A DNA stretch of 64,000 bases, taken from an uncultured Geobacter sp. (GTDB taxonomy: Bacteria > Desulfobacterota > Desulfuromonadia > Geobacterales > CAIOGM01). Within the stretch, counting starts at the first letter, position 1. Every line of letters begins with the position of its first letter. Made by a program: the position numbers and the translations under genes. This document shows positions 1,311-18,190 of this stretch, piece by piece. The DNA lies in assembly GCA_903902855.1 (NCBI GenBank), contig CAIUWK010000068.1:3363-67362 (forward strand). Direction: 5' to 3'. The notes beneath the pieces were generated by a model, which did not search any database, was not told the DNA's origin, and saw only the letters and a list, made by a program, of their open reading frames with translations.

Positions 1311-1412
1311 CCGGGACCTGGGACCGGGGACCGGTTCAAGCCGTTGCCGGTCCCGAGTCCCCGCTTCTCGTTCTGCTTTTGTCTTTACCGGTCCCCGGTC
1401 CCTGGTCCCCGC
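1311..1412. repeat. inverted pair of 7-nt arrays (GGGACCN x3 ... NGGTCCC x3)
   Basis: ccgggacctgggaccggggaccgg at 1311-1334 and ccggtccccggtccctggtccccgc at 1388-1412, spanning the portal stop. Confidence 0.85.
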
Positions 1413-2799: not shown

Positions 2800-2815
2800 G
2801 GTTCGCTCCGCTCAC

Positions 2816-2836
2816 AGGTTCTAGGTTCTAGGTTTG
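2816..2836. repeat. 7-nt tandem array AGGTTCT x3
   Basis: aggttct aggttct aggtttg. Confidence 0.85.
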
Positions 2837-2847
2837 CACCCTCTCCC

Positions 2848-2873
2848 GTAGGGGCAAGGCGTGCCGTGCCCGG
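2848..2873. repeat. REP-like palindrome, degenerate
   Basis: gtaggggcaaggcgtgccgtgcccgg, between the portal start and the terminase stop. Confidence 0.6.
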
Positions 2874-2890
2874 TCGGGGTGAGGGGTGGT

Positions 2891-4594
2891 TTATCTCCGT
2901 TGAAACAGCCTTCCAAACTTCCCCACCCGCCCCAACAACGACGTCGTCCGCCGGGTATCTTCCCCTTCACTATCCGGCTTGGCGCAGACCGCCACGACCA
3001 TTCCCGACTCCAGCAGACTCTTCAGCATCTCCAACCCATCCGGTCCGTCATCATGTCCCCCCTTACCCTTGGGACGATAATGAATCAACTGCTTGATCAA
3101 CTCCCCCATGCCGTACCGGCGAAACCGAATCCAGCCGTTCTTGATCCAGGGCTGCAGGGTGACTATCCGGAGATCCTTATCCGTGTTCGGCTTCACCGAC
3201 TTCACGTTGATGGTCAGCCCCAGGGCATGCGCTTCCTTCTGGAAACTCTGACTAAAGAACTCCTGAAACTGGATCTCTTCCATGGCCAGCTCGTCAAAGG
3301 GGTCCCGCTGGTGATAGGTCAGGATGTCCGTCATGATCCGGTCGGGGTGGCGCTTCTCGATATCCGCCACATCCACGTAGAGGATGCCGTCCTTCAGCCT
3401 CCCTCCCATGATCGCCGAAGGGTCGGCGTTCCGGCTCTTCTTCCCCAGGGACGGGTCACACGCCCCGCCATGCTTCACCCCGGAGAGATCCACCTCGTCT
3501 TCATCGTAATACTGAATCCACTCTTCCAGAAAGACCGCGTCCTCCGGGTTGATCGGTTCATTCTGCTTTTCGCTCTCGAAGTACGCCGGGCCGTCACTCA
3601 CCCGCATCTTCATCAGGTAGTAATACGGCTCCATCTCCGGCCAGAGCACCTCCGTGTGCCGGAGCATCTCTTCCCGGTGCGCCTCGAAGTAGGTATCGGC
3701 GGCGATCTCCGCCGCTTCCTTCCCCACGGTCAAATCAGCGTAGAGCCGTTCCCACTCTTCCCACCGCTTGAAGGCCTGCGACCACTTCATCACCGCCTTG
3801 AACTTCTGCCCCTTCCACCCCGGTTTTAGCAACAGCCGCGACAGCAGCGAGTCATAATGGAGAATCGTCCCCACCACGATAAAGACCGTATCCGGCTGGC
3901 CGATCTTCATCAAAGCCTTGAAGAACCAGTTCTCCAGCTTCTTCCGCTGTTCCGGACTCTCCACCGCCTCATCGTTCTCCAGGTCATCCACGACAACCAG
4001 ATCCGGTCGGCTACTCCCGTGACGCAACCCCCGCAGCTTCTGTCCCGCTCCGGCCCCCTGGATCTTCACCCCGTTGCGGGTAATGATCTGATCCGCCGTC
4101 CACTTGGGACCCTCGCCGCAGAGCTCCGGAAAATCCTGTTGCAGCCGCTCGTTGGTCTCCAGCTCCAGCTTGATGAACGAAAGAAAGCTCTCCGCCTGAC
4201 TCCGAGTCTCTGAGACGATCAGCGCATACTTCCGCTTCCGAAAGGCCGCCACCCAGAGCGGCAAACCGAAGGTCCCCCAGGTGGACTTGGCATTACCCCG
4301 GGGAGCGGCGTTGGCCTCCTTATCTCCCTGTCCGACCTCCACCGCCGTCCGGATCATCTCCAGATACCGCTTGGAGAAGTACTGATGCAGTCGACTTGAC
4401 GGCTTATTGAAGTAGTGCGGAAAATAGGTTGTGCAAAAGAAGTCCAGGCTTTGGGAAGCGCGCGCCTTGCGCGCCTTCTGCTCACCCCGCCCTGAATCAT
4501 CGGCAAAAGGTTTGGCCGCCGCCTGGATCATCTGGCGCAGCGCCTCAACCTCCTTGTCGAACACCTTCTGTTTTGCCTGACTCACCGCCGCCAT
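2891..4594 (-). CDS. terminase large subunit, Mu gp28-like
   Basis: 567 aa. Walker A-like PRGNAKST and Walker B-like LVVVDDLEND. Directly upstream of the portal gene. Confidence 0.8.
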   Translation of the reverse strand: MAAVSQAKQKVFDKEVEALRQMIQAAAKPFADDSGRGEQKARKARASQSLDFFCTTYFPHYFNKPSSRLHQYFSKRYLEMIRTAVEVGQGDKEANAAPRGNAKSTWGTFGLPLWVAAFRKRKYALIVSETRSQAESFLSFIKLELETNERLQQDFPELCGEGPKWTADQIITRNGVKIQGAGAGQKLRGLRHGSSRPDLVVVDDLENDEAVESPEQRKKLENWFFKALMKIGQPDTVFIVVGTILHYDSLLSRLLLKPGWKGQKFKAVMKWSQAFKRWEEWERLYADLTVGKEAAEIAADTYFEAHREEMLRHTEVLWPEMEPYYYLMKMRVSDGPAYFESEKQNEPINPEDAVFLEEWIQYYDEDEVDLSGVKHGGACDPSLGKKSRNADPSAIMGGRLKDGILYVDVADIEKRHPDRIMTDILTYHQRDPFDELAMEEIQFQEFFSQSFQKEAHALGLTINVKSVKPNTDKDLRIVTLQPWIKNGWIRFRRYGMGELIKQLIHYRPKGKGGHDDGPDGLEMLKSLLESGMVVAVCAKPDSEGEDTRRTTSLLGRVGKFGRLFQRR

Positions 4595-4606
4595 AATCGC
4601 CTTATC

Positions 4607-4634
4607 GTAGGGGCACGGCGCGCCGTGCCCCTAC
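4607..4634. repeat. REP-like 28-nt perfect palindrome
   Basis: GTAGGGGCACGGCGCGCCGTGCCCCTAC, between the DUF1804 stop and the terminase start. Confidence 0.9.
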
Positions 4635-4635
4635 A

Positions 4636-5094
4636 TCAATACTTTTCCCGTCCCCACTGGATAATGTCGTCAAAATTATCTTGAATCGCCGCCGTCACCT
4701 CCGGCGCATGCTTGCCGCCGTAATCGATGAGATCCTTGATGAACTGCAAAAACATCTCCCCCCGCTGCCGGGCTATGGCGTCCGTCGCTTCCCGGGCCGC
4801 GCGGGTCCGCTTGTCCAGGATCGCTTCGATCTTGCTGAGAGCATCCAGATAGCTCCCTGCCTGCAACGGCGCCGCCGATACCTGCACCATGATCTCGTCG
4901 CGGACCCTGACCAGGTTAGCCTCGTAATTGTCCTTCGCCGCCTTGGCCTTATCCCAGCCACCCCATTCCCGCCACTCGGAGAGTGTCTGCCGGGAGATAT
5001 CAAGGGTATCGGCAATGGCGGTCAGGGTCTGGCCGTCAACGAACAGCTGCCGCGCCACCGGCTCCAGTCGCGCCCGATCACCTTTCGCTGCCAT
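4636..5094 (-). CDS. DUF1804 / Mu gp27-like protein (candidate small terminase)
   Basis: 152 aa. N-terminal HTH-like LTAIADTLDISRQTLSEW. Immediately upstream of the large terminase. Confidence 0.65.
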   Translation of the reverse strand: MAAKGDRARLEPVARQLFVDGQTLTAIADTLDISRQTLSEWREWGGWDKAKAAKDNYEANLVRVRDEIMVQVSAAPLQAGSYLDALSKIEAILDKRTRAAREATDAIARQRGEMFLQFIKDLIDYGGKHAPEVTAAIQDNFDDIIQWGREKY

Positions 5095-5339
5095 CAGGCC
5101 AGCTCCTTCCGCAGTCGTGCGATATCCGCCCTAACCTTGATCAATTCACCCCAGGAGCTTTTCAGGATATCCCACTGCTCATCAAGCTGAGGAATCTCCA
5201 TGTCCCAGACCTCAATCAGAGAGGTATTGAGCCCCTGCCGAATGGCCTTGGCGCCGGATTCCATCCGCATCATCAGCCTGGTCTCGTCCTGATCCAGCCC
5301 GGCCAGCTTCCCCTTCATCGCCGCTCGTTCCAGATTCAT
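5094..5339 (-). CDS. phage protein (81 aa), unknown function
   Basis: ATG at 5339 forms an ATGA overlap with the stop of the upstream gene (plus-strand tcat at 5336-5339). Coiled-coil-like sequence. Confidence 0.5.
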   Translation of the reverse strand: MNLERAAMKGKLAGLDQDETRLMMRMESGAKAIRQGLNTSLIEVWDMEIPQLDEQWDILKSSWGELIKVRADIARLRKELA

Positions 5340-5683
5340 CCTTGTCTCTCCACTCTCTGATCTTTGCGCATCATGGGACAAAAGAGGTTGCTATCGACAC
5401 GTTCCTTTACCTGGGTCATCGTCTGGGTATTCAGCACCAGGATATCCTGCATCCCCGCGGCAAACTTCTCATAGTTCACCACCAGCTTGACGTTATCCTC
5501 GTACATCTTCACCGCCGCCTCGTGGCGCTTTTCGATGGAGCGGGAGATAAACCCCATGGCCACCCACGGCCCGAAGGTAATGGCGATGGCAATCGAACCC
5601 AGTGGCCAGGTTCCCACATTGGACATAAAAGCTGACATCGCTGTAAGTGCGGCAATCTGATCAGGGGTCACAGCGCTCTCCAA
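5336..5683 (-). CDS. phage membrane protein (DUF2730-like position)
   Basis: 115 aa with hydrophobic stretch WPLGSIAIAITFGPWVAMGFI. Lies in the Mu gp25-like slot before the packaging genes. Confidence 0.5.
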   Translation of the reverse strand: MESAVTPDQIAALTAMSAFMSNVGTWPLGSIAIAITFGPWVAMGFISRSIEKRHEAAVKMYEDNVKLVVNYEKFAAGMQDILVLNTQTMTQVKERVDSNLFCPMMRKDQRVERQG

Positions 5684-5883
5684 TTTTCATGCATGGTTTG
5701 ACAATCGATACATCTGAGGCAACCGGGTGACGCCTTGCGACGGGCCTCTGGTATCACTTCATCGCAATCAAGACAGGTGACGCGTGACGCTTGCCCGGTC
5801 CCTGAGCGAAGTCGAAGGGCCAAGGCCCGTTGTATAAACGCCTCATTGATCTCCTGAGCGCAATCGACATCATCCACGGGCAT
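5668..5883 (-). CDS. TraR/DksA-family C4 zinc-finger protein
   Basis: 71 aa. CLDC-x17-CLRCIDC four-cysteine motif, as in phage TraR-like proteins. Confidence 0.7.
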   Translation of the reverse strand: MPVDDVDCAQEINEAFIQRALALRLRSGTGQASRVTCLDCDEVIPEARRKASPGCLRCIDCQTMHENWRAL

Positions 5884-6274
5884 CTGGTCCAGGCGGTTCG
5901 TGTAAGGGCGGTTCGTGTAAGGGCGGTTCGCGAACCGCCCCTACCTCTGTCGGCATTCCTGCAGCGCCTTCAACAGCGCCTCGTTGTCCGAGTAGAGGTT
6001 GTCCACCGTCTGTTTCTGCACCGTGATCGTCTCCCCGCCGGGAATCACTACCGCCGAGGGCGAGGCGCACCCGGTCATGCTGAGCAGCGACAACAGCATC
6101 AACCCCGTGACCATCATTAACGGCGAGCCGCTCCCGTTCGGCCTGGACATACATCGAGACTTCTTCATCTGCTTGCTCCTCCGCCCGTTGGGGCTTGGCC
6201 TTCACCCACGCTCCCAGGATGATGCTCAAAAGTCCCAACAATGCCGTAATCGCGGCGATGATCCCGGCAGCCAT
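5870..6274 (-). CDS. putative i-spanin (Rz-like)
   Basis: N-terminal transmembrane (TM) helix AAGIIAAITALLGLLSIILGAW, then a charged region. Start overlaps the holin stop (TGATG). Contains the o-spanin ORF in another frame. The tail reads through a REP cluster. Confidence 0.45.
   Translation of the reverse strand: MAAGIIAAITALLGLLSIILGAWVKAKPQRAEEQADEEVSMYVQAERERLAVNDGHGVDAVVAAQHDRVRLALGGSDSRRGDDHGAETDGGQPLLGQRGAVEGAAGMPTEVGAVREPPLHEPPLHEPPGPDARG
5891..5944. repeat. REP cluster (two half-units plus one full palindrome)
   Basis: aggcggttcgtgta, agggcggttcgtgta, agggcggttcgcgaaccgcccctac. Confidence 0.9.
5941..6168 (-). CDS. putative o-spanin lipoprotein (Rz1-like), embedded
   Basis: Lipobox LSMTG-C after a hydrophobic signal. 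Short ~41-aa mature part with a Cys near the C-terminus. Lies entirely inside the i-spanin ORF in a different frame. Confidence 0.6.
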   Translation of the reverse strand: MKKSRCMSRPNGSGSPLMMVTGLMLLSLLSMTGCASPSAVVIPGGETITVQKQTVDNLYSDNEALLKALQECRQR

Positions 6275-6561
6275 CAGGGGGTAGGCTGCTTCTGCAAGAG
6301 AAACTTGAGGCTCTTGGTCACGGAATCAACCAGACCGTTCCCCCTGAACCAGGGGGAGGAACCCATCAGTTCCGACAGCGCCAGCCCGATAGCGAGAATC
6401 GCGGAAAGATTCTCCTTTAGCCAGAGCACCAGCGAAGCCGGCGGGACCGTCAACTTCGGCACGATAGGGACCACCGGCAGAGGCTCAGCGCCCCACGCGC
6501 AAATGACCATAGTGAGACAAACGATGAAGAAAACAGCGTTGATAATACGATAACTTTTCAT
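6274..6561 (-). CDS. putative holin / small lysis membrane protein
   Basis: 95 aa with two hydrophobic segments. ATGA overlap with the endolysin stop, and 1-nt overlap with the i-spanin start. Confidence 0.4.
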   Translation of the reverse strand: MKSYRIINAVFFIVCLTMVICAWGAEPLPVVPIVPKLTVPPASLVLWLKENLSAILAIGLALSELMGSSPWFRGNGLVDSVTKSLKFLLQKQPTP

Positions 6562-7043
6562 ACCGGATTCTCCTTGGGTTGGAACTTCATGATATGGTCG
6601 ACGTACTCCTGATTCAGGAACCTACCGGCGGCATCCTTCCTGGGAGTTCCGGCGTTGTAAGCAGCCGCAACCCCTGCCCACCCCAGCGCATCGTAATGCC
6701 GGTCACGGAACCGGGCCAGGTGACGGCAGCCGTACTCCATCCCCGTGGCCGGGTCGCAGAGCTCCGGCAGAAATTCACCCTTGAACCCGTACTCCCGGGC
6801 CACCTGACCCATGATCTGCATCAATCCCCAGGAGCAGGCCCGGGTCGTCCGTTCCGTCTCGTGACTGGCGCCGAATACCTGGCACTGATCCGGCACGTAA
6901 TGAGCACGGAAAGCCGCCTCGAAGCGGACCGCCCACGGATCACCGCCGCTCTCGGTATTGATGACACCGCAGATAAGCCATTCAGGCAAACAGAACCGCG
7001 CCGCGTATTCGGCAATAAGTTTTTGTATCTCGGGAGTAAGCAC
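6558..7043 (-). CDS. lytic transglycosylase (SLT domain) endolysin
   Basis: GVINTESGGDPWAV catalytic-Glu motif. GTG at 7043 has an AAAGGA SD. The longer start at 7094 would place an intrinsic terminator hairpin inside the ORF. Confidence 0.75.
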   Translation of the reverse strand: MLTPEIQKLIAEYAARFCLPEWLICGVINTESGGDPWAVRFEAAFRAHYVPDQCQVFGASHETERTTRACSWGLMQIMGQVAREYGFKGEFLPELCDPATGMEYGCRHLARFRDRHYDALGWAGVAAAYNAGTPRKDAAGRFLNQEYVDHIMKFQPKENPV

Positions 7044-7061
7044 GACAAATCCTTTGGGGGG

Positions 7062-7100
7062 GTAAAACGAAAATCCCCCCGTGGCGATAGCCACGGGGGG
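7062..7100 (-). terminator. intrinsic terminator between the ORF6N-like gene and the lysis cassette
   Basis: On the minus strand: ccccccgtggc-tatc-gccacgggggg followed by ATTTTCGTTTT. Confidence 0.7.
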
Positions 7101-7146
7101 AAGATAACAAATCTATTTTCTCAAGTCCCTTGCGGGATTCACAAAG

Positions 7147-7878
7147 TCAGGGGGTCATTTCAGCCTTTTCATCCTGCTCATTCATCCTGATAAATATCTG
7201 CTTGACTGCCTCCCTCGTCCGGTTGAGTTTGACGCCGATAGCTGCCAGGGACAGCCCTTCCTCTGCCAGTTGCCTCGCCTTCGTCTTTTCCTCTTCTGTC
7301 CAACGGCTCTTTCTCACCCATCCCGCCAGTTTCATCTCGGCAAGCTCCGCCCGACTCTCCAGAAGATTGATGAGGCGGTCCTTGTCGATGGTGGAGCAAT
7401 TAGCCGGCACCCGCTGGTTGAAATAGTTCATCACCAACAGGCGCTGAATATCCCATGACAGATCATCCTTGAATGACTTCACCAGCATCATGTAGCCGGT
7501 CAGTGTTATCATAAATAAATTGCCCCGATATCCCCCCCGAGAATCGCCATTTTCGGATGTTTGAGGGTACGAATTTCGTACCCTCAAACTCTCCTCGTCA
7601 GATATTTGAACCGGTGAATTTCGTACGATCGAACCGTCTCCATATTCTTCGTTTTCCGTTTCTGAATCATCTGACATAAGGTCCGTCCACTCTTCATAGG
7701 GCAGGCTAAAATAATCAACTCCCTCAATGAAGTGTTCCCGATTCTGGTGGAAATTTCGTTTAGCTGTTTTTTCCACCCGCTGATGCAGTTCGTCTATCTC
7801 TCGAAGCGTCAGCACCGGTTCATTGCGATACAGCCGTTTTTCCAGCATCCGGTCATTAATCTTGACAAGTGTTCCCAT
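7147..7878 (-). CDS. ORF6N/KilA-N-like DNA-binding protein with C-terminal Myb/SANT-like HTH
   Basis: LTLREIDELHQR...NFHQNREHFIEGVDYF and ...GYMMLVKSF resemble an ORF6N domain split by an acidic insert. C-terminal WTEEEKTKARQLAEEGLS. AGGAGG SD. Confidence 0.55.
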   Translation of the reverse strand: MGTLVKINDRMLEKRLYRNEPVLTLREIDELHQRVEKTAKRNFHQNREHFIEGVDYFSLPYEEWTDLMSDDSETENEEYGDGSIVRNSPVQISDEESLRVRNSYPQTSENGDSRGGYRGNLFMITLTGYMMLVKSFKDDLSWDIQRLLVMNYFNQRVPANCSTIDKDRLINLLESRAELAEMKLAGWVRKSRWTEEEKTKARQLAEEGLSLAAIGVKLNRTREAVKQIFIRMNEQDEKAEMTP

Positions 7879-7880
7879 GG

Positions 7881-8096
7881 TTAAACCTCCTGTTGGTAGT
7901 AGTCCAGCGCGGTTTTCACGGCCTCTTCGGCGTCGGAGATAAGCCAGTACAGGCCGGTGAGAGTAACATCGGAAAGGTGACCTTTACGGTCATCGGCAGC
8001 AGTGCAGATCAGGGAGGCCAGCAGGGCGAGTTTGTAGCGGGTTTCGTTGAGGAGATCATACGGGTGCTTGTCGCACCGGGGGCAAGGGGTAATCAT
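7881..8096 (-). CDS. small phage protein (71 aa), CxxC-containing
   Basis: ATG at 8096 with an AAGGAGA SD. The 161-aa form in the track is an unsupported upstream extension. Confidence 0.45.
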   Translation of the reverse strand: MITPCPRCDKHPYDLLNETRYKLALLASLICTAADDRKGHLSDVTLTGLYWLISDAEEAVKTALDYYQQEV

Positions 8097-8341
8097 GGTG
8101 GTTCTCCTTATCTTTTCGAAGTTGGCACTTTCGAAGGTGCCGGGTGGTTCGAAACCGTGATAAGGAACGGCACAGGGCTTTCCCCTTTCGGGTATTGTAT
8201 AGCCCTGTCCACCCGACAGTCCTTTCATACTGTGGGCGCAAAAATACCGCAAATCGGTGCGGGTCCGCCTTATCACTCGTGGTTTCGACGCCACTTGTGC
8301 CGACGGTACCGCAAATTTACCTTGTGCGTCAATAACTTTTC

Positions 8342-8638
8342 TCAAAACATATTCCCCTGCTTCCACTTTTCCCGACTCTCCGCCACCAGGTCATACACAT
8401 ATCGCTCGCTCACCCCCACCTCCAAGGCCAACAACCGATGATTACCCCCGGTGAATTTCTCCAAAATCCATTCGTTCTTCGCCGGGAGAAAGAGCTTGTC
8501 AGGATGCTTCAGATACAGATGGACACTCTTCAACTCATTCGCCATCCGCACCGTCGCCTCCATGCCGATAGTCCGGACCAACAGTTGATAATCTTCCGGT
8601 AACTGCTCAATGTTGATCTTGTCGGTCCACGGCATCAC
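8342..8638 (-). CDS. Mor-family transcriptional activator
   Basis: 98 aa. C-terminal HTH LALEVGVSERYVYDLV. Typical size and position (after GemA, before the lysis/late genes). Confidence 0.7.
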   Translation of the reverse strand: MMPWTDKINIEQLPEDYQLLVRTIGMEATVRMANELKSVHLYLKHPDKLFLPAKNEWILEKFTGGNHRLLALEVGVSERYVYDLVAESREKWKQGNMF

Positions 8639-9129
8639 TTATCCCCCATCTTCTTCAATGATTCGATGACATTCGATTTCTCCGCCACGGAGCACCAGGG
8701 GAGAGCATCAAGCCCGGTTTGACGTTTGACGAAGGCCAGCATCGCCGTTGTTGAAGGATCACGGACGATCCCGCAATCATACAACGAGAGCCACATCGCC
8801 CGAATCTTCAGATCCTGCGGTTCATTGCCCACCCGGGGGGATTCACCCTGTAGGGGCGGTTCGCGTAAGGGCGGTTCGCGAACCGCCCCTACAGGACCCG
8901 CCCCGACGGTTTTCGCCCCGACAAGAACAAACCCCTTACGCTGCAATTCCTCGATCAACGCCCCGGCCTGATTGAAGGTCAACTCCTTGCAGCTCTTCGC
9001 CTTGAATCGCTCCTGGAGCATGGTCCGGTAGTCATCATCCGTAATACCCAATTTCCCCTGAGCCATCTTGATCACGGAGATCTGCCCCTTGGTGATAGTC
9101 GACTTGGCGGCGCTCTTATAGTAACTCAT
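8635..9129 (-). CDS. GemA / Mu gp16-like protein (DUF1018) carrying an in-frame REP insertion
   Basis: ISVIKMAQGKLGITDDDYRTMLQERFKAKSCKELTFNQAGALIEELQRKGF is GemA-like. The central VGAGPVGAVREPPLREPPLQGES is encoded by the REP at 8850-8892. Confidence 0.65.
   Translation of the reverse strand: MSYYKSAAKSTITKGQISVIKMAQGKLGITDDDYRTMLQERFKAKSCKELTFNQAGALIEELQRKGFVLVGAKTVGAGPVGAVREPPLREPPLQGESPRVGNEPQDLKIRAMWLSLYDCGIVRDPSTTAMLAFVKRQTGLDALPWCSVAEKSNVIESLKKMGDK
8850..8892. repeat. REP element inside the GemA-like ORF
   Basis: gtaggggcggttcgcgtaagggcggttcgcgaaccgcccctac. Confidence 0.9.
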
Positions 9130-9902
9130 TCCATGGACCTCACTAACTCTCGTAACCGTTCCCGGTTGGCCGCTCGCTCTTCACTGCTGATCTCATTATC
9201 CAACGCCTTTTGCGGCTTGCGTATGGGCATCAACTCCACCAGTTGCGCTGGACCCGGCCACTTGCGCGACTTGGTGAAGAGTTGCCGGAAGGCCGCGGCG
9301 ATCCGGGGCGCGTCCAGATCTTGCACGCTGGCTTTCGGCCTGATCGCCTGCTCCCAGATATCGGCGGTTTTGGTGATGGTATCCGCCGCCGGAGAGTTCT
9401 CCAGGCGCAACGCCAGCAGACCGGCCAGACCGGAAGCAACGGCGATCCTGACCCAATCCCCGCAATGCCACCCATCCAGGCTGTTAATGGCGGCATCGGT
9501 CTTGGAACTGGAAGCTGTTGAACAGTTGAATTGTTGAGGTGTTGAATTGTTCAATCGATTCAACGATTCAACATTTCCACGATTCAACAGCACTTTCTTC
9601 AGGTAATTATGGTTTTTCAGCGGCGCGCCCCCTTTACCCCGGAGCGCCTCCACCGTCTCGGCCATGGCCTCATTCAACGCGCCGCTCCCTGCTCCCTGCT
9701 CGCCGATCGCCAACACCTCCACCGTCAACCGTGTCATCCGGTCCCACGCCAGGGCGCGTTTCTCCGACCGAAACAGCGACAGATAGGCGAACAGAGACGG
9801 CGGAAACTCCCCTTTCATCCCGATCAACCGCCGGGCTTCCTCATCCTGGATGACCGCCTCTATGGAAAACTGCGCATGACAGCACGGGCAATGGAGCATC
9901 AT
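9126..9902 (-). CDS. phage early protein, N-terminal CPCC zinc-finger-like, unknown function
   Basis: 258 aa. Coding-like composition. Contains the in-frame low-complexity stretch NRGNVESLNRLNNSTPQQFNCST, encoded by the TTCAAC repeat array. Confidence 0.5.
   Translation of the reverse strand: MMLHCPCCHAQFSIEAVIQDEEARRLIGMKGEFPPSLFAYLSLFRSEKRALAWDRMTRLTVEVLAIGEQGAGSGALNEAMAETVEALRGKGGAPLKNHNYLKKVLLNRGNVESLNRLNNSTPQQFNCSTASSSKTDAAINSLDGWHCGDWVRIAVASGLAGLLALRLENSPAADTITKTADIWEQAIRPKASVQDLDAPRIAAAFRQLFTKSRKWPGPAQLVELMPIRKPQKALDNEISSEERAANRERLRELVRSME
9514..9591. repeat. inverted 7-8-nt arrays (GTTGAA... / ...TTCAAC) inside an ORF
   Basis: gttgaacagttgaattgttgaggtgttgaattgttcaatcgattcaacgattcaacatttccacgattcaacagc. 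Confidence 0.85.
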
Positions 9903-10252
9903 CCCTTCATCCCCCGTTCCAACTCATTACGGTATCCGTCCCGCTCGGCCCGTGCCTGAGCCAGGGATGCGGTGAGCACCTCATTATCGGCTCTCATCGT
10001 CTCCGCCCGTTGTGCCGCGATAACGTACAACTCAGCGTGCCGTCCGCACGACACGATGAGGTTTTTGTTATCCCGGGTGAGACGCTCCACCTCGGCGGCG
10101 AGAACATCGTACGAGTTCAGAATTCTCTTCATATCTCCGATAGAACACCATGAATTACTCCCGGAAGGGCTCATCCACCAACTATCCGGTGATTCCGGAT
10201 CAATGCGCACGTACGCTTTTTTTCGTGTTTCCATTGCCTCATCAATCGTCAT
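9899..10252 (-). CDS. phage early protein (117 aa), coiled-coil
   Basis: ATG at 10252 with a GGGAGGGA SD. The longer track form starts inside a REP element. Confidence 0.5.
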   Translation of the reverse strand: MTIDEAMETRKKAYVRIDPESPDSWWMSPSGSNSWCSIGDMKRILNSYDVLAAEVERLTRDNKNLIVSCGRHAELYVIAAQRAETMRADNEVLTASLAQARAERDGYRNELERGMKG

Positions 10253-10287
10253 CTCATCCCTCCCACTCAAAACAGCTCTTGTTGTGT

Positions 10288-10325
10288 CGGTTCGCGTAGG
10301 GGCGGTTCGCGAACCGCCCCTGCAG
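10288..10325. repeat. REP element
   Basis: cggttcgcgtaggggcggttcgcgaaccgcccctgcag. Confidence 0.9.
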
Positions 10326-10405
10326 ATGCCCGTTCTTCCGCTTCCGCCCTGGAGATCTTGCACCGATATTCGAGAATAGCGGCCCGCTCCTCCCAGGTGA
10401 TGCGT

Positions 10406-10657
10406 TCATCGCTGGTCATCATTACCAAGGCGGTATTCCCACGTCGGTTGATCGGCGTCCTTCACCCGGCGACAGGCAATGGCGATGCCGTTATCACGGA
10501 TCTCCTTCACCGTGGCCGACACCGCCTGATTGCGCCACCCCCTGGCCGCCGACTTCTCTGCCAGATCCCATGTCGTGTGCCACTGACCATCGGACAGAAT
10601 CGCCATGATGATCTGCAACCGCGTACTGCTGTAGAGTTTTGCAAAATTCCCCGCCAT
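10406..10657 (-). CDS. small winged-helix-like DNA-binding protein
   Basis: 83 aa. TRLQIIMAILSDGQWHTTWDLAEKS resembles a wHTH. Family not identified. Confidence 0.4.
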   Translation of the reverse strand: MAGNFAKLYSSTRLQIIMAILSDGQWHTTWDLAEKSAARGWRNQAVSATVKEIRDNGIAIACRRVKDADQPTWEYRLGNDDQR

Positions 10658-10700
10658 CTCTCATCTCCTCACACAGTGTTGAAGGTTCAAGAGGACTTCC

Positions 10701-10730
10701 GTAGGGGCGACCGGCCGGTCGCCCCTGCAG
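10701..10730. repeat. REP element, variant core
   Basis: gtaggggcgaccggccggtcgcccctgcag. Confidence 0.9.
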
Positions 10731-10738
10731 AAACCCGA

Positions 10739-10767
10739 TCAACATTCAACAACAATTCAACGATTCA
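10739..10767. repeat. 7-nt array TTCAAC type
   Basis: caacattcaacaacaattcaacgattca. Confidence 0.8.
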
Positions 10768-10768
10768 T

Positions 10769-10796
10769 GTACGGGCGGTTCGCGAACCGCCCCTAC
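10769..10796. repeat. REP element overlapping the HU stop codon
   Basis: gtacgggcggttcgcgaaccgcccctac. Confidence 0.9.
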
Positions 10797-11050
10797 ACCG
10801 CCGCCTTGAACACAAACGCCTGCTTCCCCGGAATGGCAAGGGTTTCACCCGTCTTGGGATTCCTCCACGCCCTGGTCGCCCTGGTGACGACCTTGAACGT
10901 CCCGAACCCCTTCAGCGTCACCGGCTCCGTGTGGGCCACCTCCCGGATCAGATCGAAAGCATGGACCAGAGCCTCATCGATCTCCTTCTTCGTGATCGTC
11001 CCGCTGATCATCTGCAACTGTACTTCCTCAACCAACTGTTTCCTGTTCAT
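10793..11050 (-). CDS. HU/IHF-family DNA-binding protein
   Basis: 85 aa. GFGTFKVVTRATRAWRNPKTGETLAIPGKQAFVFKA is the HU beta-arm signature. Confidence 0.85.
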   Translation of the reverse strand: MNRKQLVEEVQLQMISGTITKKEIDEALVHAFDLIREVAHTEPVTLKGFGTFKVVTRATRAWRNPKTGETLAIPGKQAFVFKAAV

Positions 11051-11062
11051 GCGTTATCTCCT

Positions 11063-11224
11063 TTAGTAGTTATCTTGGACTATTTTAAAATCTGACGATG
11101 TCAGCACCTTCCTGGAGCATACGTCGCAAAACGGACAATACACCGTGACTCTCATACCTTCCGGATGCAAATCAATTAGTACTGTGTCGATATCCACATT
11201 CGCCTGACACACCGGGCATTCCAT
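11063..11224 (-). CDS. 53-aa zinc-ribbon mini-protein (below the ORF-track cutoff)
   Basis: My translation: MECPVCQANVDIDTVLIDLHPEGMRVTVYCPFCDVCSRKVLTSSDFKIVQDNY. Two CxxC pairs. Start overlaps the upstream stop (TAATG). Confidence 0.4.
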   Translation of the reverse strand: MECPVCQANVDIDTVLIDLHPEGMRVTVYCPFCDVCSRKVLTSSDFKIVQDNY

Positions 11225-11415
11225 TAGATAAATACCTCCTCAATAAAGATGACTTTTGCCCAGCAGTTGCAAACAGGACAGACAAGATTTTTTCCCGGCT
11301 CAATGGTCCCTGCGCTTGAAAGATAGATTTTCTGCTTTTTATCCTTGGTAAACTTCATGCCGCAGCAACGCGTGCTGTCGCATTTGGCCGTAACCTTGAA
11401 ATACGGTAGTTTCAT
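11224..11415 (-). CDS. 63-aa Cys-rich small protein
   Basis: Contains C-x4-CC and CPVCNC. Start overlaps the upstream gene by 4 nt (11412-11415). Confidence 0.45.
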   Translation of the reverse strand: MKLPYFKVTAKCDSTRCCGMKFTKDKKQKIYLSSAGTIEPGKNLVCPVCNCWAKVIFIEEVFI

Positions 11416-11654
11416 TCCTTCACCTCGCTATCTTCCCTTGCCGCCAGTGCCTTCCCGATAGAGGTTTCATACCCGTAATCTCCCGGTACCCCGAAAGCCC
11501 GAGGCACCGGAGTCCCCTCCAGAATGCGCGCTAGCCCTTTCAATAATTCAACTGCGTCACCGACGATATCATCCGGGTAAAAGTCAACTGTGCCGATATC
11601 TCGTAACTGCTTAGCAGCTTCCCGGACCGCCATTACCATGAGTCGAGTATTCAT
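11412..11654 (-). CDS. phage early protein (80 aa), unknown
   Basis: ORF-track ORF, tightly packed in the early operon. Confidence 0.4.
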   Translation of the reverse strand: MNTRLMVMAVREAAKQLRDIGTVDFYPDDIVGDAVELLKGLARILEGTPVPRAFGVPGDYGYETSIGKALAAREDSEVKE

Positions 11655-11662
11655 AACTCCCC

Positions 11663-12268
11663 CTACGCCGCGATATTCAGATTCAGCTGCTGATAATCCC
11701 CTTTGGCGTCCCGCCGGTAGAACCGGACGTACGCCTTGGAACTCTCCACCTGGATGCTGTCGCTGATAGCCTGCATCGCCTGCTTCCAGGTCTCGTCCTT
11801 GATATCGATCCGGCGCAACGACAGAATCCGCTTGGTGTTGATCCGCCCCGCCTTGTCCACCTGAAAGGCATCATTGATGAGGGTCCGGATCTCCGACCCG
11901 CTGTCTTCCGACCACCGCCGCAGACAGTCGTCAATCAACGCCTTGGCCGCCTGGAGCCGCTCGTCGAACCTCAGGAAATCATCCATGGAGCGCACCAGCT
12001 TGAACTTGCCGTCATAGCTGGTCAGGGTGACGTTGCCTACCTTTCCCCCCAGATTCGCCCCGTACTTCTCGGCGGAGAGCTCCACAAACGCCTGGATATC
12101 CTCCATCACGTTCTTCTTGAACTCCACCAGCAGCTGGGAAATCGTATCCGCCCGTTTCATCAGCTCGATGACCAGGCCGTTTCTCACCAGATCCACCTCC
12201 TTGATCGACGCCACCGGTACCAGCCGTCCCACCCCATCCGCCATGTAACCTGCCACGATCTGCTCCAT
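11663..12268 (-). CDS. DUF3164-family Mu-like phage protein
   Basis: ATG at 12268 with an AAGGAG SD gives a 201-aa protein, the typical size for DUF3164. The 279-aa track form has an R/H/D-rich extension that does not look coding. Confidence 0.6.
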   Translation of the reverse strand: MEQIVAGYMADGVGRLVPVASIKEVDLVRNGLVIELMKRADTISQLLVEFKKNVMEDIQAFVELSAEKYGANLGGKVGNVTLTSYDGKFKLVRSMDDFLRFDERLQAAKALIDDCLRRWSEDSGSEIRTLINDAFQVDKAGRINTKRILSLRRIDIKDETWKQAMQAISDSIQVESSKAYVRFYRRDAKGDYQQLNLNIAA

Positions 12269-12295
12269 CTGTTGCTCCTTGTCGTTGGTAATATC

Positions 12296-12319
12296 GGGCG
12301 CAGCAAGCCGCGCCCCTAC
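12296..12319. repeat. REP-like element, variant and partial
   Basis: cgggcgcagcaagccgcgcccctac, upstream of the DUF3164 start. Confidence 0.6.
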
Positions 12320-12425
12320 GTTAATACCCAAATACCCCGAACGATTGCCCCCGTCAGGATGATGATGACGGTCCCGATGAAGAACCGCCCCACGATCCGC
12401 TCCGTCCTGGTCATCCTCGGCGGGT

Positions 12426-12557
12426 TCATGCAAACGCCTCCGATACCATGTAGGCCAGCCACCCCAGGGCAAAGCCGATGAACATTGCCATGGAGACCGC
12501 AATCATCATGTACCGGGCCAGATGCTCAACATACTGATCTTCGTCGAAATTCTTCAC
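12426..12557 (-). CDS. 43-aa small membrane protein
   Basis: GTG at 12557 with a GGAGGA SD and a GTGA overlap with the upstream mini-ORF. Hydrophobic MMIAVSMAMFIGFALGWLAYMV. Confidence 0.35.
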   Translation of the reverse strand: MKNFDEDQYVEHLARYMMIAVSMAMFIGFALGWLAYMVSEAFA

Positions 12558-12727
12558 ACCATCCTCCCCGGGTAATTCACCTCGCCTCTCTTCCCCCCCC
12601 GCACCGTGAATGCTCCCATCTGCGCCAGGGCGATGTTCAACCGGCAGTTCGCCTTGTAGGCCATGGCCCGTTTCGTCCGGCCGAAGACCCGCCGCCACTT
12701 CAGATGATCAATAATTGCTTGCAACAT
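12554..12727 (-). CDS. 57-aa basic mini-protein (below the ORF-track cutoff)
   Basis: My translation: MLQAIIDHLKWRRVFGRTKRAMAYKANCRLNIALAQMGAFTVRGGKRGEVNYPGRMV. GAGGAG SD 9 nt upstream. Confidence 0.3.
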   Translation of the reverse strand: MLQAIIDHLKWRRVFGRTKRAMAYKANCRLNIALAQMGAFTVRGGKRGEVNYPGRMV

Positions 12728-13268
12728 GGCTCATACTCCTCTCGGTTAGCAGCGGATTCGGTTCCAGCATCCCTTTCAAAAAAGAATGGGGCACAAAGGG
12801 GGGCGGGTTGGTCTGCGGGCCATTCAGCCACTTGGACTGTTTGCGACCGCACGGGCCGCACATCCGGCTGTGACTGTAATACACATGCTTCCCCGTACAA
12901 CCTTCCACACAGCAATCATTGGTCGGGCGCGGGTTTGTAAGCTGCCTCTTCCCCGTATTCCCGCGGGTTACGGCCACCCCCCGCACACTCTCCAGCGGGA
13001 TATCCCGATACCTGGCAAAGTACGTCTCTGCCTGACGTGCCACCCGCCAGCCGCAGATATCACACTTGATTTCATCCTCCACGGCATACCCGGCCCCGTC
13101 GCTGATCATGGTGACGGTATCCCGCCGCAACGGTCCGGAACACTTGGGGCAAACCGGCTTTTTCAATTGAGAATTGACAGTTGATAATTGACAATTGGGG
13201 GTCAATTGTCCCTTGTCCATTGTCAATTGTGCATTGCCGTTCTTGTCCATTGTCACTTGCTGTGTCAT
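12708..13268 (-). CDS. Cys-rich phage early protein (186 aa), unknown
   Basis: GAGAGGGG SD. Several CxxC pairs (CPKC, CDIC, CGPC). The N-terminal MDKNGNAQLTMDKGQLTPNCQLSTVNSQL is encoded by the AATTGAC repeat array. Confidence 0.45.
   Translation of the reverse strand: MTQQVTMDKNGNAQLTMDKGQLTPNCQLSTVNSQLKKPVCPKCSGPLRRDTVTMISDGAGYAVEDEIKCDICGWRVARQAETYFARYRDIPLESVRGVAVTRGNTGKRQLTNPRPTNDCCVEGCTGKHVYYSHSRMCGPCGRKQSKWLNGPQTNPPPFVPHSFLKGMLEPNPLLTERSMSHVASNY
13164..13256. repeat. inverted 7-nt arrays (AATTGAC / GTCAATT type) inside an ORF
   Basis: caattgagaattgacagttgataattgacaattggggg tcaattgtcccttgtccattgtcaattgtgcattg. Confidence 0.85.
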
Positions 13269-13344
13269 AATCCCCTCTCTTGAATTCTTTCCCGTAGTCC
13301 GGCTCCCCTGGTTGCACCCAGAGGGAGCCGTTTTTTACGGTTTT

Positions 13345-13370
13345 TTCACCATTCACCATTCACCATTCAC
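13345..13370. repeat. 7-nt array TTCACCA x3-4
   Basis: ttcaccattcaccattcaccattcac. Confidence 0.9.
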
Positions 13371-13374
13371 GCCT

Positions 13375-14610
13375 TTAAATTGCCCCTACCACTTCCGCCG
13401 TCACCTTCGCCTCCCCCAATTCGCACGCCAGATTCATCGCCCGGGTAGCGTACAGATTCACCGTCAGCGGATACGCCGTGGAAACACTCCGTCCCCGCTC
13501 CCCGGCCACCGTCAGCCGCCGCTGCAACAACGTCATCGCCTCCTCATCAAAGATTGTTTCCACCTTGCCACCCACCAGCCGGATCTTGTGTTCCAGGTAT
13601 TCCCGACAGTTGGTCATCCCGTCGATCCGCGCCACCTGACAGCGCCGGATCACCTCCCGCATCTCCGGATGGAACCGTTCATCCAGCAGATCCCCCAGCT
13701 CCGTTTGACCGATGAGGATGATGCTGATCAGCTTCCGGTACCCCGTGGTGTCCTCCAGCTCGTAGATCTGTTTCAGCGTCTTGAAGGCCGCCACATTCAG
13801 CCGGTGAGCCTCTTCGATGATCAGGCAGCAGCGCGTCCCCTGTTGACTCCGTTCCAGCAGCAGCCGCTTCACCTGCCGGGCCTTGTGCTCGTGCTTCACC
13901 CGCGGCTTCTCGCTGCTGATATCCATGATGATGGCGTCACACAACGATGCCGACGTGATCTTGTCCTTGTCCAGGATCTCCGGATAGACCACCTGAATAT
14001 CCCCTTCCCGCCGGAGCTGCTCCACCACCAGCTTCCGCATGGTGCTCTTGCCGCTCCCCACTTCCCCCACCACGGACAGAAAGCCGCTGTGCATGGCCGA
14101 ATCCATCATGGCCGCCTCGATATAGCGGTGATCATCATCCTTGTAAATGTCCGACGCCTTCTGCACATCGTTGATAAACGGCGACCGAAACAGCTTAAAA
14201 TGCTTCATTGCCCTGGGGTCCAGCATCTCCACCACCTCCACACTCTCTATTTTTTCCGGATCTCCCGGTTGCATCGCCCGTACCGTAGGCGCCCGATGAT
14301 CATGACACCCCACGGGATGAACCCTGTGCCGTGCTTCATCGGCCTTGTTCCAGATATCGACAATCTTCAGATGACGCTCCGTCAGCCACGCCGTCACCTC
14401 GGCGTTTTCGGCAAGAACACTCTGCAATTTTTCCTTGAAACCGCGAATGCTGGGGGGGATTACCCCCCGGTTAACGCAGAGGTTAATAGTTGCCCGGGAA
14501 ACCCCCATCGCATCGGCGATACTCTTTTGCAGAATGGCGCACTCCAGGATCAGGTGTTTCAGGATGATCGGCGCAATCTCCAGATCATAGACTTTCGTAT
14601 GGTGTGTCAT
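13375..14610 (-). CDS. MuB-like AAA+ transposition helper ATPase (ExeA/TniB-like) with N-terminal HTH
   Basis: Walker A GEVGSGKST and Walker B CCLIIEEAH. N-terminal HTH ADAMGVSRATINLCV. Start overlaps the transposase stop by 4 nt (14607-14610). Confidence 0.8.
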   Translation of the reverse strand: MTHHTKVYDLEIAPIILKHLILECAILQKSIADAMGVSRATINLCVNRGVIPPSIRGFKEKLQSVLAENAEVTAWLTERHLKIVDIWNKADEARHRVHPVGCHDHRAPTVRAMQPGDPEKIESVEVVEMLDPRAMKHFKLFRSPFINDVQKASDIYKDDDHRYIEAAMMDSAMHSGFLSVVGEVGSGKSTMRKLVVEQLRREGDIQVVYPEILDKDKITSASLCDAIIMDISSEKPRVKHEHKARQVKRLLLERSQQGTRCCLIIEEAHRLNVAAFKTLKQIYELEDTTGYRKLISIILIGQTELGDLLDERFHPEMREVIRRCQVARIDGMTNCREYLEHKIRLVGGKVETIFDEEAMTLLQRRLTVAGERGRSVSTAYPLTVNLYATRAMNLACELGEAKVTAEVVGAI

Positions 14611-16358
14611 CGCATCCCCCCCGCCGCCTGTAGGGACGGTTCGCGAATCGCCCTTACATTATCCGCCCCTACGGTCACCGGTTCCGGCAACGCCCTCCCG
14701 GCGGCAATGGCCGCAACCACCTCACCCACCAGCCGATTATCAATAGTCTCTCCGTACTTTGCCCGCAGATCCTTGTTCAAAGCCGGCGTCATGGTCACCC
14801 CATCCGCCAAAAGCGCTTTGAACAGCAACACAATGGGGACTTCCGTGGTCACCACACTGCGGGAAATCTCCGCCACCGTCCCCACCTTGGGAAACGCCAC
14901 CACATTCCCCATCTTATCCTCGAACCCTTCAAAGGCATTGAGCCCGGTGAACGGCGCCACCTTCCCGGTTCGCTGCTGCTTGGAACTGAGCGTAGTCGAA
15001 GCGCCGTAAGCGATATCTTCCAACTTCTTCACCGCCGTCTGCGTCGTCGTATCCTTGTGCGACTTGAACGCCTCGCCGATAACCACCGAATCCGCCCGAA
15101 AGCCCCCCAGTTCCGGCGCCAGCTTGCCGATCTCCTTCACCTCGAACAACCGGTTGTCATACCCCACCACCACGATCCCTTCCTTCCACTTGAACAGGTT
15201 CTTGATCACCTTCACCTTGGTCCCGTGGGGGATATTGGCATGCGCCAGATTGAATTCCTTCCCCTGGAAGCTGATCCGGTGACTGTTCACCGTCCGCTCC
15301 TCCTCCGGCCGGTTCAGCAGGTCGCACAGTTCGGCCCGATCCGGCAGAATCCGGAGCTGCTCCTTATTGATGGTCAGCCAGCAGACCAGCCGGGTCATCT
15401 TGGTCCGGCTATGCTCCCGCGAAGCGTTGAACCAAATGCAAAAGCCCCGCGCCTTCCGGTTCAGATCCTCCATCCCCGTGGCCGGATCGAACCGGAGCCG
15501 CGTCTCGAACCACTTCTCCCAGATGTTATGGGTGACTTCCACGCTCCCCTGTCGCCGGCTGTTCCCCGGATTCCCCGGCAGGATGTTGATCTCCAAGCCA
15601 TCCCAGAACCCCATCCCCATGGCCTTCGCCTTGGCCCGACTCCCGCCGTCCATGAGCATGGTTTTCGGCACTCCCTGGAAGGGGAAGTTTTGTTCCGCTT
15701 TCGCCTCCCAGGCGCAGCAACTGAAGTCGAACAGGTTCTCCGCCGTCTCCCCGGCTGCCAGATAATACTTGACGAAAAAGAAGCCGCTGAAATGGTCGGT
15801 CATGATGTACCGCTGCAACGGCTCCTTGATCTTCTTGAAGTTTTCAATCTTGTTCTTGTAGAACTCATCTTCCCGCATGATCTGCATGCCGCCTTCGTTC
15901 AGGTAATACTGAATGCAGGTGGAGACATCCACCAAGTGGCAGTGATTGGGGTGGAGCGACCGGAGCGAGACATGGGGGGTCGGGTTATTCAGCCGTTTCG
16001 AGTCCATCTCCAACTGCCGCAGCTGCTTCTGCACCGTCTCCACGCTGGCCTCGCCCCGGAGCATGATGTTGTTATCGATGGCGAACTCCATGGCGTTTTC
16101 CACCGGCATAAAAGCCCCCTTATTCTCCCGGCGACTGGCCCAGATCGCCGAAGCGATAAACTCGGCGGTTTCCAGCTTCAGACCGCCATTCCCCTTATCC
16201 GCTCGCTCCTTGCGCTCCAGGGCAAAGCCGTGATCCTTGGCGATGCGGTACAACGTAGAAGAAGAAAGACCTCGTAACCCCTGATACCGGGCGATAATTC
16301 CCGCTCGTTCCCGCGCCGGCGCTTCATTCAATTCCCAGGCTAATTCCCGTTGCCACAT
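14607..16358 (-). CDS. Mu-type DDE transposase (MuA-like)
   Basis: 583 aa. N-terminal HTH (SSSTLYRIAKDHG). Candidate DDE residues in HLVDVS, LMDGGS and GSVEVTHN with DD(35)E-like spacing. Followed by the MuB-like gene. Confidence 0.85.
   Translation of the reverse strand: MWQRELAWELNEAPARERAGIIARYQGLRGLSSSTLYRIAKDHGFALERKERADKGNGGLKLETAEFIASAIWASRRENKGAFMPVENAMEFAIDNNIMLRGEASVETVQKQLRQLEMDSKRLNNPTPHVSLRSLHPNHCHLVDVSTCIQYYLNEGGMQIMREDEFYKNKIENFKKIKEPLQRYIMTDHFSGFFFVKYYLAAGETAENLFDFSCCAWEAKAEQNFPFQGVPKTMLMDGGSRAKAKAMGMGFWDGLEINILPGNPGNSRRQGSVEVTHNIWEKWFETRLRFDPATGMEDLNRKARGFCIWFNASREHSRTKMTRLVCWLTINKEQLRILPDRAELCDLLNRPEEERTVNSHRISFQGKEFNLAHANIPHGTKVKVIKNLFKWKEGIVVVGYDNRLFEVKEIGKLAPELGGFRADSVVIGEAFKSHKDTTTQTAVKKLEDIAYGASTTLSSKQQRTGKVAPFTGLNAFEGFEDKMGNVVAFPKVGTVAEISRSVVTTEVPIVLLFKALLADGVTMTPALNKDLRAKYGETIDNRLVGEVVAAIAAGRALPEPVTVGADNVRAIREPSLQAAGGMR
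14630..14672. repeat. REP element inside the 3' end of the transposase gene
   Basis: gtagggacggttcgcgaatcgcccttac followed by attatccgcccctac. Confidence 0.8.
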
Positions 16359-16381
16359 ACCGCACCCCCTAAAAACAATCC

Positions 16382-16431
16382 ATAAACCTTAAACCTTGAA
16401 CCTTTAGCCTTCAGCCTTCAGCCTTTAACCT
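16382..16431. repeat. 7-nt array TTNANCC x7
   Basis: ataaacc ttaaacc ttgaacc tttagcc ttcagcc ttcagcc tttaacc. Confidence 0.9.
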
Positions 16432-17347: not shown

Positions 17348-17651
17348 GATCCGCTCCGATACTGGTCAAATCGCGGCCAATCCGGTCGCGTTTACCTTCC
17401 AGATTCGCCTTCACCCTGGCCCAAAACAGCGCCACCCCCATGCCGATCTCCCACACATCATTCTCCCGCCGGACGAATCCCGCATCCAACGCCGTCATCA
17501 GCCAGCAAAGCACCGTATTCACCGACTCGCCCATTCCCTGAGCAATCTCCGCCGCCGACATCGGCTGTTTCGCCTGAGACATCAGCTTCAACATCTCATA
17601 CCCCTGCGCCTGCGCCTTAATCCGTCGATAACTATCCCCAGCCATACTCAA
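17340..17651 (-). CDS. winged-helix (IclR/MarR-like HTH) small protein
   Basis: 103 aa. MSAAEIAQGMGESVNTVLCWLMTALDAGFV resembles a wHTH. Confidence 0.45.
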   Translation of the reverse strand: MSMAGDSYRRIKAQAQGYEMLKLMSQAKQPMSAAEIAQGMGESVNTVLCWLMTALDAGFVRRENDVWEIGMGVALFWARVKANLEGKRDRIGRDLTSIGADHE

Positions 17652-17673
17652 AAGCTCCCTTTATCCCTGATTT

Positions 17674-17703
17674 TTCAACCTAGAACCTTGAACCTTGAAC
17701 CTG
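17674..17703. repeat. 7-nt array TTGAACC type
   Basis: ttcaacc tagaacc ttgaacc ttgaacc. Confidence 0.9.
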
Positions 17704-17705
17704 TT

Positions 17706-18140: not shown

Positions 18141-18190
18141 TGCGCAAACCTCTTTATCTGTCAAAATCAAAGCAAATTTGATAAGATGCT

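Follow-up and report, generated by a model that had tools for sequence, protein, structure and literature searches.

Repetitive extragenic palindromic (REP) elements and the tyrosine transposases associated with them (RAYTs) are currently seen as vertical, chromosome-bound partners of unknown function. In vitro, the TnpAREP of Escherichia coli, a Y1 HuH enzyme, reportedly recognizes a foot and a hairpin on single-stranded DNA, cuts, and rejoins the strand. Bertels and Rainey are said to have described, in 2011, the REP doublets forming hairpins (REPINs) of Pseudomonas as non-autonomous units served by a single-copy RAYT. Here, we describe a dense set of REPs inside a Mu-like (transposable) prophage, found in a 64,000-nucleotide stretch of DNA from an uncultured Geobacter sp. 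(assembly GCA_903902855.1, contig CAIUWK010000068.1, positions 3,363 to 67,362). This whole stretch is referred to as the window.

The REPs of TnpAREP subclass 2.4, or RAYT group 4, have a long stem that begins with three G-C pairs and a foot at each end (the double foot, GT[AG]G at the 5' and C[TC]AC at the 3' end), and are scattered over many phyla (Quentin et al. 2018, PMC6006769). Because the hairpin, feet and RAYT link of the window elements match this description, the kind of element is already known; what is new about REPs in a transposable phage is the setting rather than the element. For GTAG REPs, stop codons supplied by the TAG of the foot and in-frame insertions have been reported (Di Nocera et al. 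2013, PMC3733652), and the abundant families are restricted to core genome regions (PMC3733652). RAYTs are mainly vertically inherited (PMC5581495). Given core-genome REPs and vertical RAYTs, dense and changing REPs on a transposable phage are unexpected. In Pseudomonas saltoviruses, transposition hotspots adjoin bacterial interspersed mosaic elements (BIMEs) of the host (Vergnaud et al. 2018, PMC5977238).

Anatomy and family of the elements

The prophage occupies positions 1-21761 of the window, and positions 21762-64000 are host DNA. Nine sites, all inside the prophage and all within 2848-14672, hold a 28-bp palindrome (GTAG-GGGC-N12-GCCC-CTAC) or what is left of one. The original prediction, made from the sequence alone, had counted about ten elements, some of them tandem. 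Nine sites proved real, but the strict pattern that it proposed fits one copy only, at 4607-4634. Position 13382 is probably not an element: it is a lone GCCCCTAC half-site in coding sequence, within the MuB-like open reading frame (ORF), and is conserved in a sister phage. When up to one mismatch per end is allowed, seven units are recovered (4607, 5917, 8865, 10296, 10701, 10769 and 14630), and the degenerate or one-footed copies are those at 2848 and 12296. Repeats are also present as claimed, but they are 15-nt half-arms, at 5892-5930 and 8850-8880 beside complete units, rather than whole units. The three cores named in the prediction are correct: GGTTCGCGAACC in five copies, one of them (14630) with a mismatch, and elsewhere ACGGCGCGCCGT and GACCGGCCGGTC.

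For GTAGGGGC, 13 occurrences were counted in the window and 1.8 were expected; none of 100 shuffles had as many. Twelve of these occurrences fall within 2848-14672, and the remaining one, at host position 59169, has no partner. The 20-mer palindrome GGGCGGTTCGCGAACCGCCC is exact at 5921, 8869, 10300 and 10773, with 0 expected, and is found with two mismatches at 14634. Window copies have the 5' GT[AG]G foot at the hairpin base, the seven copies with at most one mismatch per end also have the 3' C[TC]AC foot, and the GGG/CCC stem base is invariant, forming three consecutive G-C pairs.

The exact 20-mer was found in at least 120 genome stretches from many phyla, in unrelated flanks, and ORF clustering across the 120 listed loci revealed no frequent recurrent neighbor gene. 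Of the 131 listed copies of the 20-nt hairpin, from many phyla, 116 are flanked by a GTAG foot, and in 45 of these each flank has one. Four RAYT genes, all from genomes other than that of the window (one each in L012 and L052, two in L067), contain the element as an in-frame segment that is translated as GRGGSRTAPT. These genes, missed by a strict HuH/Y pattern and found by a looser one, carry MPNHLHG...WQ...YIxxNP and match Y1_Tnp and REP_Tyr_transpos (NCBIfam 'REP-associated tyrosine transposase'). The in-frame RAYT copies and the double-foot match bear out the REP/RAYT assignment of the original prediction and sharpen it: judged by sequence, the window elements are identified as double-foot REPs of TnpAREP subclass 2.4, or RAYT group 4.

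The suggestion that cores vary in a compensatory way was upheld in an independent sample of 146 IMG/VR units chosen by their ends alone. Perfect palindromic cores were present in 79 of the 146, and the four variable stem pairs showed 151 double-sided changes, compared to 47.7 in shuffles; none of 500 shuffles was as high. Palindromy continues through the center of the unit, and no preference for G-U pairs over other mismatches is seen; both features suggest DNA-level copying rather than RNA-stem selection alone. The identity of cores across phyla was considered as a sign of gene transfer and rejected, since with fixed ends there are approximately 4096 palindromic cores and recurrence is expected.

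Several other element classes were considered and set aside. The 28-bp unit is not a miniature inverted-repeat transposable element, as it is without an internal segment of 70-300 bp between terminal inverted repeats, and its anatomy does not match that of CRISPR repeats. The REPIN form does not occur in the window, whose copies are single palindromes or arm arrays. Elsewhere, REPIN-like inverted hairpin pairs with their feet outside and a 30-230-nt spacer are found in L015 (3239-3382), L080 (6243-6509) and L109 (1036-1105). A literature search for GGTTCGCGAACC as a text string returned unrelated matches only, neither GTAGGGGC nor GGTTCGCGAACC is present in the supplements of PMC3733652, and among GenBank phage records none has the 28-mer of core GGTTCGCGAACC.

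The REPs occupy spacers between co-directional genes, where two feet supply TAG stops (5941 and 10793), and three coding positions, namely the GemA linker, the final ~20 codons of the transposase ORF, and a small ORF, in its 3' portion. This small ORF, which holds the REP at 10296-10323, is 51 aa long in the relative L259. At the HU-like gene, the stop codon overlaps one REP, and another lies 40 nt further downstream. Folding of the mRNA-sense sequence gives -16 to -46 kcal/mol for the sites (-22.5 kcal/mol for 2840-2885, which contains the site at 2848). The earlier proposal that they serve as terminators found no support: a scan of the window for intrinsic terminators called no REP as one and detected no T-run after any copy. 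On its coding strand (minus), the phage has a single canonical intrinsic terminator, at 7101-7074, where a 12-bp stem is followed by TTTTCGTTTT. This terminator separates an ORF6N-domain gene from the lysis genes, and its conservation extends to sister phages.

Distribution and turnover in phage and host DNA

A detector that counts one- or two-footed units found 9 copies in the 21.8 kb of prophage, or 0.41 per kb, compared to 0 copies (0 per kb) in the 42.2-kb host part of the window, in 15 kb of host contig L135 (9.6 kb of it beyond the window), in 22.4 kb of contig L344 (7.8 kb of it new, on the far side of the insertion site), and in 709 kb of control viral DNA. The observation by eye that the 42 kb of host DNA lacks elements was therefore correct and extends to both additional contigs. 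From these counts, 7-10 sites would be confined by chance to the fraction of the DNA that is phage with a probability of about 1e-4 to 2e-6. The host sample is ~60 kb around the prophage rather than genome-wide; within the available DNA, the distribution of the REPs is phage-restricted. The original prediction made no choice among its three explanations; its caution that a small host sample may be unrepresentative is weakened, yet stands in part.

Sister phages of the L128-130 and L259 lineages carry 0.64-0.93 units per kb, with approximately ten core types and at partly different sites. The late region past the window, seen in contig L125, adds one more copy only. Around a seed copy in REP-bearing genomes, further copies (the seed excluded) number ~0.07 per kb; the phage lineage has 5-10 times the density found around copies in those genomes. 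The claim that enrichment in a prophage reverses the expectation for REPs thus holds for this locus, and the same pattern is seen again in sister phages and Mu-like IMG/VR contigs.

The prophage is recognized as Mu-like by MuA/MuB-type transposition genes, GemA and Mor, a Mu-type head module, a TG end, and the absence of the insertion in a relative. Its left end, at 21761, reads 5'-TG, and the junction at 21761/21762 is ...TTTAACA|GGACGACGG.... The conspecific contig L344, 98.9% identical over 14.6 kb, has an empty site at its position 14609 and no prophage. Because the prophage is missing from so similar a genome, it is a strain-specific insertion, and its REP copies predate this insertion. 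The prophage was recently acquired.

A motif with 16 fixed bases matched at least 120 stretches in IMG/VR, and a composition-matched control with 14 fixed bases matched 82 in the whole collection. Mu-like hallmark genes were present at 39 of the 120 listed element loci, compared to 1 of 82 control loci (Fisher p=1.6e-9), and 35 of 89 de-replicated element clusters contained Mu-like loci. Among portal-family Pfam hits in the element loci, Portal_Mu was the commonest type (7 of 16); the control list, which covers its 25 most frequent families, does not include it. Counting Pfam families is the more neutral measure because it is independent of queries drawn from element loci. The densest contig, L244, has 10 copies in 14.8 kb of a Mu-like late region. 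Lambda-like contigs also carry copies, and none of the 120 chromosomal loci listed is Mu-like. Mu-like phages are in excess among the viral carriers, an excess uncorrected for lifestyle and host taxon and measured against a control set with mostly lytic-type replication genes.

Neither the strict nor the looser pattern detected a RAYT (HuH/Y1) motif in the window or among the phage loci, and a domain search matched no HuH domain among the phage ORFs. A profile-guided search of IMG/VR recovered 2 RAYT relatives; the REP motif is present in at least 120 stretches of the same collection. The phage copies appear to be non-autonomous and, as far as visible, orphaned. Because no such enzyme is encoded in the window, any movement of the REPs would be driven in trans.

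Comparison with relatives of the phage revealed sister phages loaded with REPs, at partly different sites and with swapped cores. The same phage was found in another sample, as contig L125 (99.9% identity over 12,800 aligned bases), and all 13 differences from the window fall at 10304-10335, within one REP, where the core is ACGGCGCGCCGT instead of GGTTCGCGAACC; the trailing arm remnant of the 10288-10323 site is the same in both. Five sites hold differing cores among relatives. At the codon position of the GemA insertion, homologs with 90-94% identity have another core (VGARRAVPLQ, VGANNHSPVR), and homologs with 59-71% identity have no element. The 4607 spacer is filled by heptamer arrays in relatives, and the 5892-5944 site has ~5.6 arm copies in L259 compared to 2.6 in the window. 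L259 has core ACGGCGCGCCGT at the 10701 site and shares the REP at 10769, where the sister phage L130 has an unrelated hairpin. Two other cores are found at the 12296 site in L259 and L130, and the place corresponding to 14630 in L130 holds a further decayed copy. Cores and arms turn over rapidly within the phage lineage. Between filled and unfilled sites no target-site duplication is visible, in alignments that are unclean where other repeats occupy the spacers.

An assembly artifact was rejected as the source of the core swap by argument rather than by test, as contigs built at k=141 would need reads that swap a 28-nt core in identical flanks. The metagenome contig L126 begins with a 64-nt fold-back copy (1-64, window 4571-4634) at the perfect REP. 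REP counts from short reads may be biased, because assemblers break or invert at these palindromes.

The locus and its other repeats

The prophage encodes a transposase (phrog_310), transposition protein B (phrog_296), GemA, Mor, a DUF3164 protein and an HU-like protein, as well as SLT (lytic transglycosylase), terminase, portal and MuF-like proteins. A search of IMG/VR for relatives of one late prophage gene found none. A low-GC block at 18000-21761 (47-49%, compared to 55-60% elsewhere), at the left end of the prophage, has plus-strand genes, including one at 20588-21577 (phrog_6191, unknown function), and is probably the repressor and accessory region. The coordinates of the elements and arrays are given in Table 1.

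Table 1. Prophage, host DNA, REP sites and short tandem arrays, in window coordinates
Feature	Position	Strand	Context or basis
Mu-like (transposable) prophage, left part	1..21761	-	Phage gene content; L344 homology stops at 21762
Host chromosome without REP of GTAG double-foot family	21762..64000		Pattern and detector scans
Degenerate REP GTAGGGGC-AAGGCGTGCCGT-GCCCGGTC	2848..2875		Terminase stop / portal start spacer
Perfect 28-bp double-foot REP, core ACGGCGCGCCGT	4607..4634		DUF1804-like gene stop / terminase start spacer
Complete REP 5917-5944 (core GGTTCGCGAACC) and 15-nt half-arm repeats	5892..5944		Foot is TAG stop of gene ending 5941
Composite REP: complete 8865-8892 and extra arms	8850..8907		In frame, GemA-like gene linker (...VGAGPVGAVREPPLREPPLQ...; VGAVREPPL...)
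REP 10296-10323 (core GGTTCGCGAACC) and partial arm	10288..10323		Polymorphic site
REP, core GACCGGCCGGTC	10701..10728		Upstream of gene starting at 10657
REP, core GGTTCGCGAACC	10769..10796		Foot is TAG stop of phage HU-like gene (10793-11050)
One-footed REP GGGCGCAGCAAGCCGCGCCC-CTAC	12296..12319		Upstream of DUF3164 gene
Decayed REP and extra foot	14630..14672		Last ~20 codons of transposase ORF (...VTVGADNVRAIREPSLQAAGGMR*)
Prophage 7-8-nt arrays	12-52, 1304-1411, 2816-2834, 9516-9589, 13164-13259, 13345-13370, 16383-16431, 17677-17702		
Host 7-8-nt arrays	26388-26452, 40414-40588, 43794-43813, 52343-52395, 63345-63371		

Tandem arrays of 7-8 nt are a second repeat system. They fill spacers of both host and prophage (TTCACCA/GTGAATG, GGGACCG, AGGTTCT, CAATTGA, TGTTGAAT and others) and are often inverted, forming hairpins; the TTCACCA unit is common to phage and host. 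In sister phages, such arrays are found in spacers that hold GTAG REPs in the window.

Two palindromic sequences were seen in the host DNA. A perfect 18-bp inverted repeat, GAGAGTGGGCCGCCCGGA / TCCGGGCGGCCCACTCTC, lies at 22017-22055, ~250 bp beyond the prophage end, and is unrelated to the GTAG family. At 56912-56939, ACCCCTAC-N12-GTAGGGGT, with its feet reversed, falls in the N-terminus of an EamA-type transporter ORF, and we judge it to be chance coding sequence.

Explanations and known systems

The explanation that we favor, and hold to be probable if not strongly so, is that the elements are non-autonomous REPs that hitch-hike and turn over in a transposable-phage lineage and are mobilized in trans. 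The 28-bp unit consists of a GTAG foot, a stem opening with three G-C pairs, a free self-complementary core and the mirror foot CTAC, and double-foot REPs of this form would be the cognate repeats of subclass 2.4, or group 4, REP-associated tyrosine transposases. An enzyme of the present or an earlier host may drive their movement, so that copies colonize the spacers of co-directional genes and the three tolerant coding places, and then travel with the phage. At fixed sites, whole cores would be exchanged and 15-nt arms duplicated or lost, with copy-to-copy replacement or template switching at the hairpin as likely routes. The REPs would be transcribed in long phage operons and fold to stable hairpins without a U-tract. 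Because the U-tract is lacking, any effect on the phage would be something other than termination, perhaps protection of mRNA ends or uncoupling of neighboring cistrons.

Several points weigh against this explanation. The strong Mu-like association is unexplained by passive hitch-hiking alone. In relatives, spacers without a GTAG REP often hold other hairpin-forming repeats, and such replacement could mean that a hairpin is wanted at those spacers. Movement of 28-bp units by subclass 2.4 enzymes is presumed by analogy with E. coli TnpAREP, the enzyme for which the biochemistry is known. Sparse host REPs or a host RAYT may lie beyond the ~60 kb sampled, and the prophage sequence examined leaves ~9 kb at the far end uncovered.

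One interpretation of the Mu-like excess, which we offer tentatively, is that RAYT group-4 REPs have a preferred niche in Mu-like phages, which also serve as their horizontal vehicle. Such a niche could arise by either of two routes: the phage could exploit the hairpins, or DNA replicating by transposition could be what host RAYTs preferentially seed or mark. If Mu-like phages are indeed a vehicle, REP-RAYT systems would not be purely vertical residents of the core genome, and phage carriage would help to explain the presence of the same 28-mer across many phyla.

An unlikely explanation is that the phage keeps the hairpins for its own use, either as operon punctuation, through mRNA 3'-end protection and cistron uncoupling, or as DNA sites of the gyrase/HU/IHF type that would help to organize a transposing genome, with REPs being the most available hairpin module. 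REP/BIMEs of E. coli bind gyrase and IHF and stabilize upstream mRNA. Phage use would fit the Mu-like excess in hallmark genes, clusters, portal type and densest contig, the stable folds at gene boundaries, and the other hairpins or inverted heptamer arrays that fill the same spacers in relatives. The phage also encodes an HU-like protein, whose own gene has two REPs at or after its stop. However, phages with 85% identity share no conserved site, some copies fall in ORFs and decay there, no U-tract follows any copy, lambda-like contigs carry copies too, and the control from which the excess is calculated is uncorrected for host taxon or temperate lifestyle.

We consider it improbable that the elements are made and remodeled locally without a transposase, by hairpin template switching and slippage during phage replication that would turn quasi-palindromes into perfect ones, produce duplicate arms, and copy cores from site to site. 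Such a process would account for palindromy through the center, where a hairpin loop needs none, for the many perfect cores (79/146), and for the lack of G-U preference, which points to a DNA-level process; the 15-nt arm arrays vary in copy number, and the swapped-in cores are already present elsewhere in the same phage. It leaves unexplained the invariant GTAG-GGGC ends across phyla and the copies inside RAYT genes, and it covers turnover but not origin or arrival at new sites. Ordinary colonization by host REPs, with the same family and a RAYT elsewhere in the host and 60 kb that are unrepresentative, is very unlikely: REPs are patchy along chromosomes, zero copies in 60 kb are not impossible given ~0.07 per kb beyond a seed, and the heptamer arrays shared by phage and host suggest long association, but the copies divide as 0 in 42.2 + 9.6 + 7.8 kb of host DNA and 9 in 21.8 kb of prophage, they were on the phage before it inserted, as the 98.9%-identical genome without it indicates, and sister phages in other samples are equally loaded.

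A RAYT-less phage lineage in which cores are replaced, as in the favored reading, is a natural system for watching REP movement on short time scales. If the Mu-like link survives controls, it would bear on how REPs spread between hosts, on the role of RAYT group 4, and on whether transposing phages gain from hairpins or are targeted through them. If it fails controls, the elements would represent an ordinary REP family in an unusual place.

The closest known system is that of the subclass 2.4 double-foot REPs (PMC6006769), which share with the window elements the 5' GT[AG]G foot, its reverse-complement 3' foot, three G-C pairs, a long stem and presence in many phyla. Those REPs lie beside or inside chromosomal tnpAREP genes, whereas here they are dense in a transposable phage without a visible tnpAREP and absent from the sampled host flank. 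The GTAG REP superfamily (PMC3733652) and the REP/BIMEs of E. coli likewise have a GTAG tag beside a GC-rich hairpin, between co-directional genes and downstream of ORFs, and foot-supplied TAG stops and occasional in-frame linker insertions are shared with the superfamily. Classical REPs differ in having the tag at one end only and imperfect stems, and in that their abundant families are core-genome restricted. Like the window elements, Pseudomonas REPINs are non-autonomous, and inverted, spaced REP pairs of the window family occur elsewhere (L015, L080 and L109); the window units are instead single 28-bp palindromes without a spacer, and REPIN-RAYT systems have been described as vertical. Rickettsia palindromic elements are also palindromic repeats in frame within functional genes, but they are 100-150 bp long and have no GTAG foot and no RAYT link. 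The saltovirus hotspots (PMC5977238) share the connection between Mu-like phages and REPs; there, the REPs are targets in the host, whereas here they lie inside the phage genome itself.

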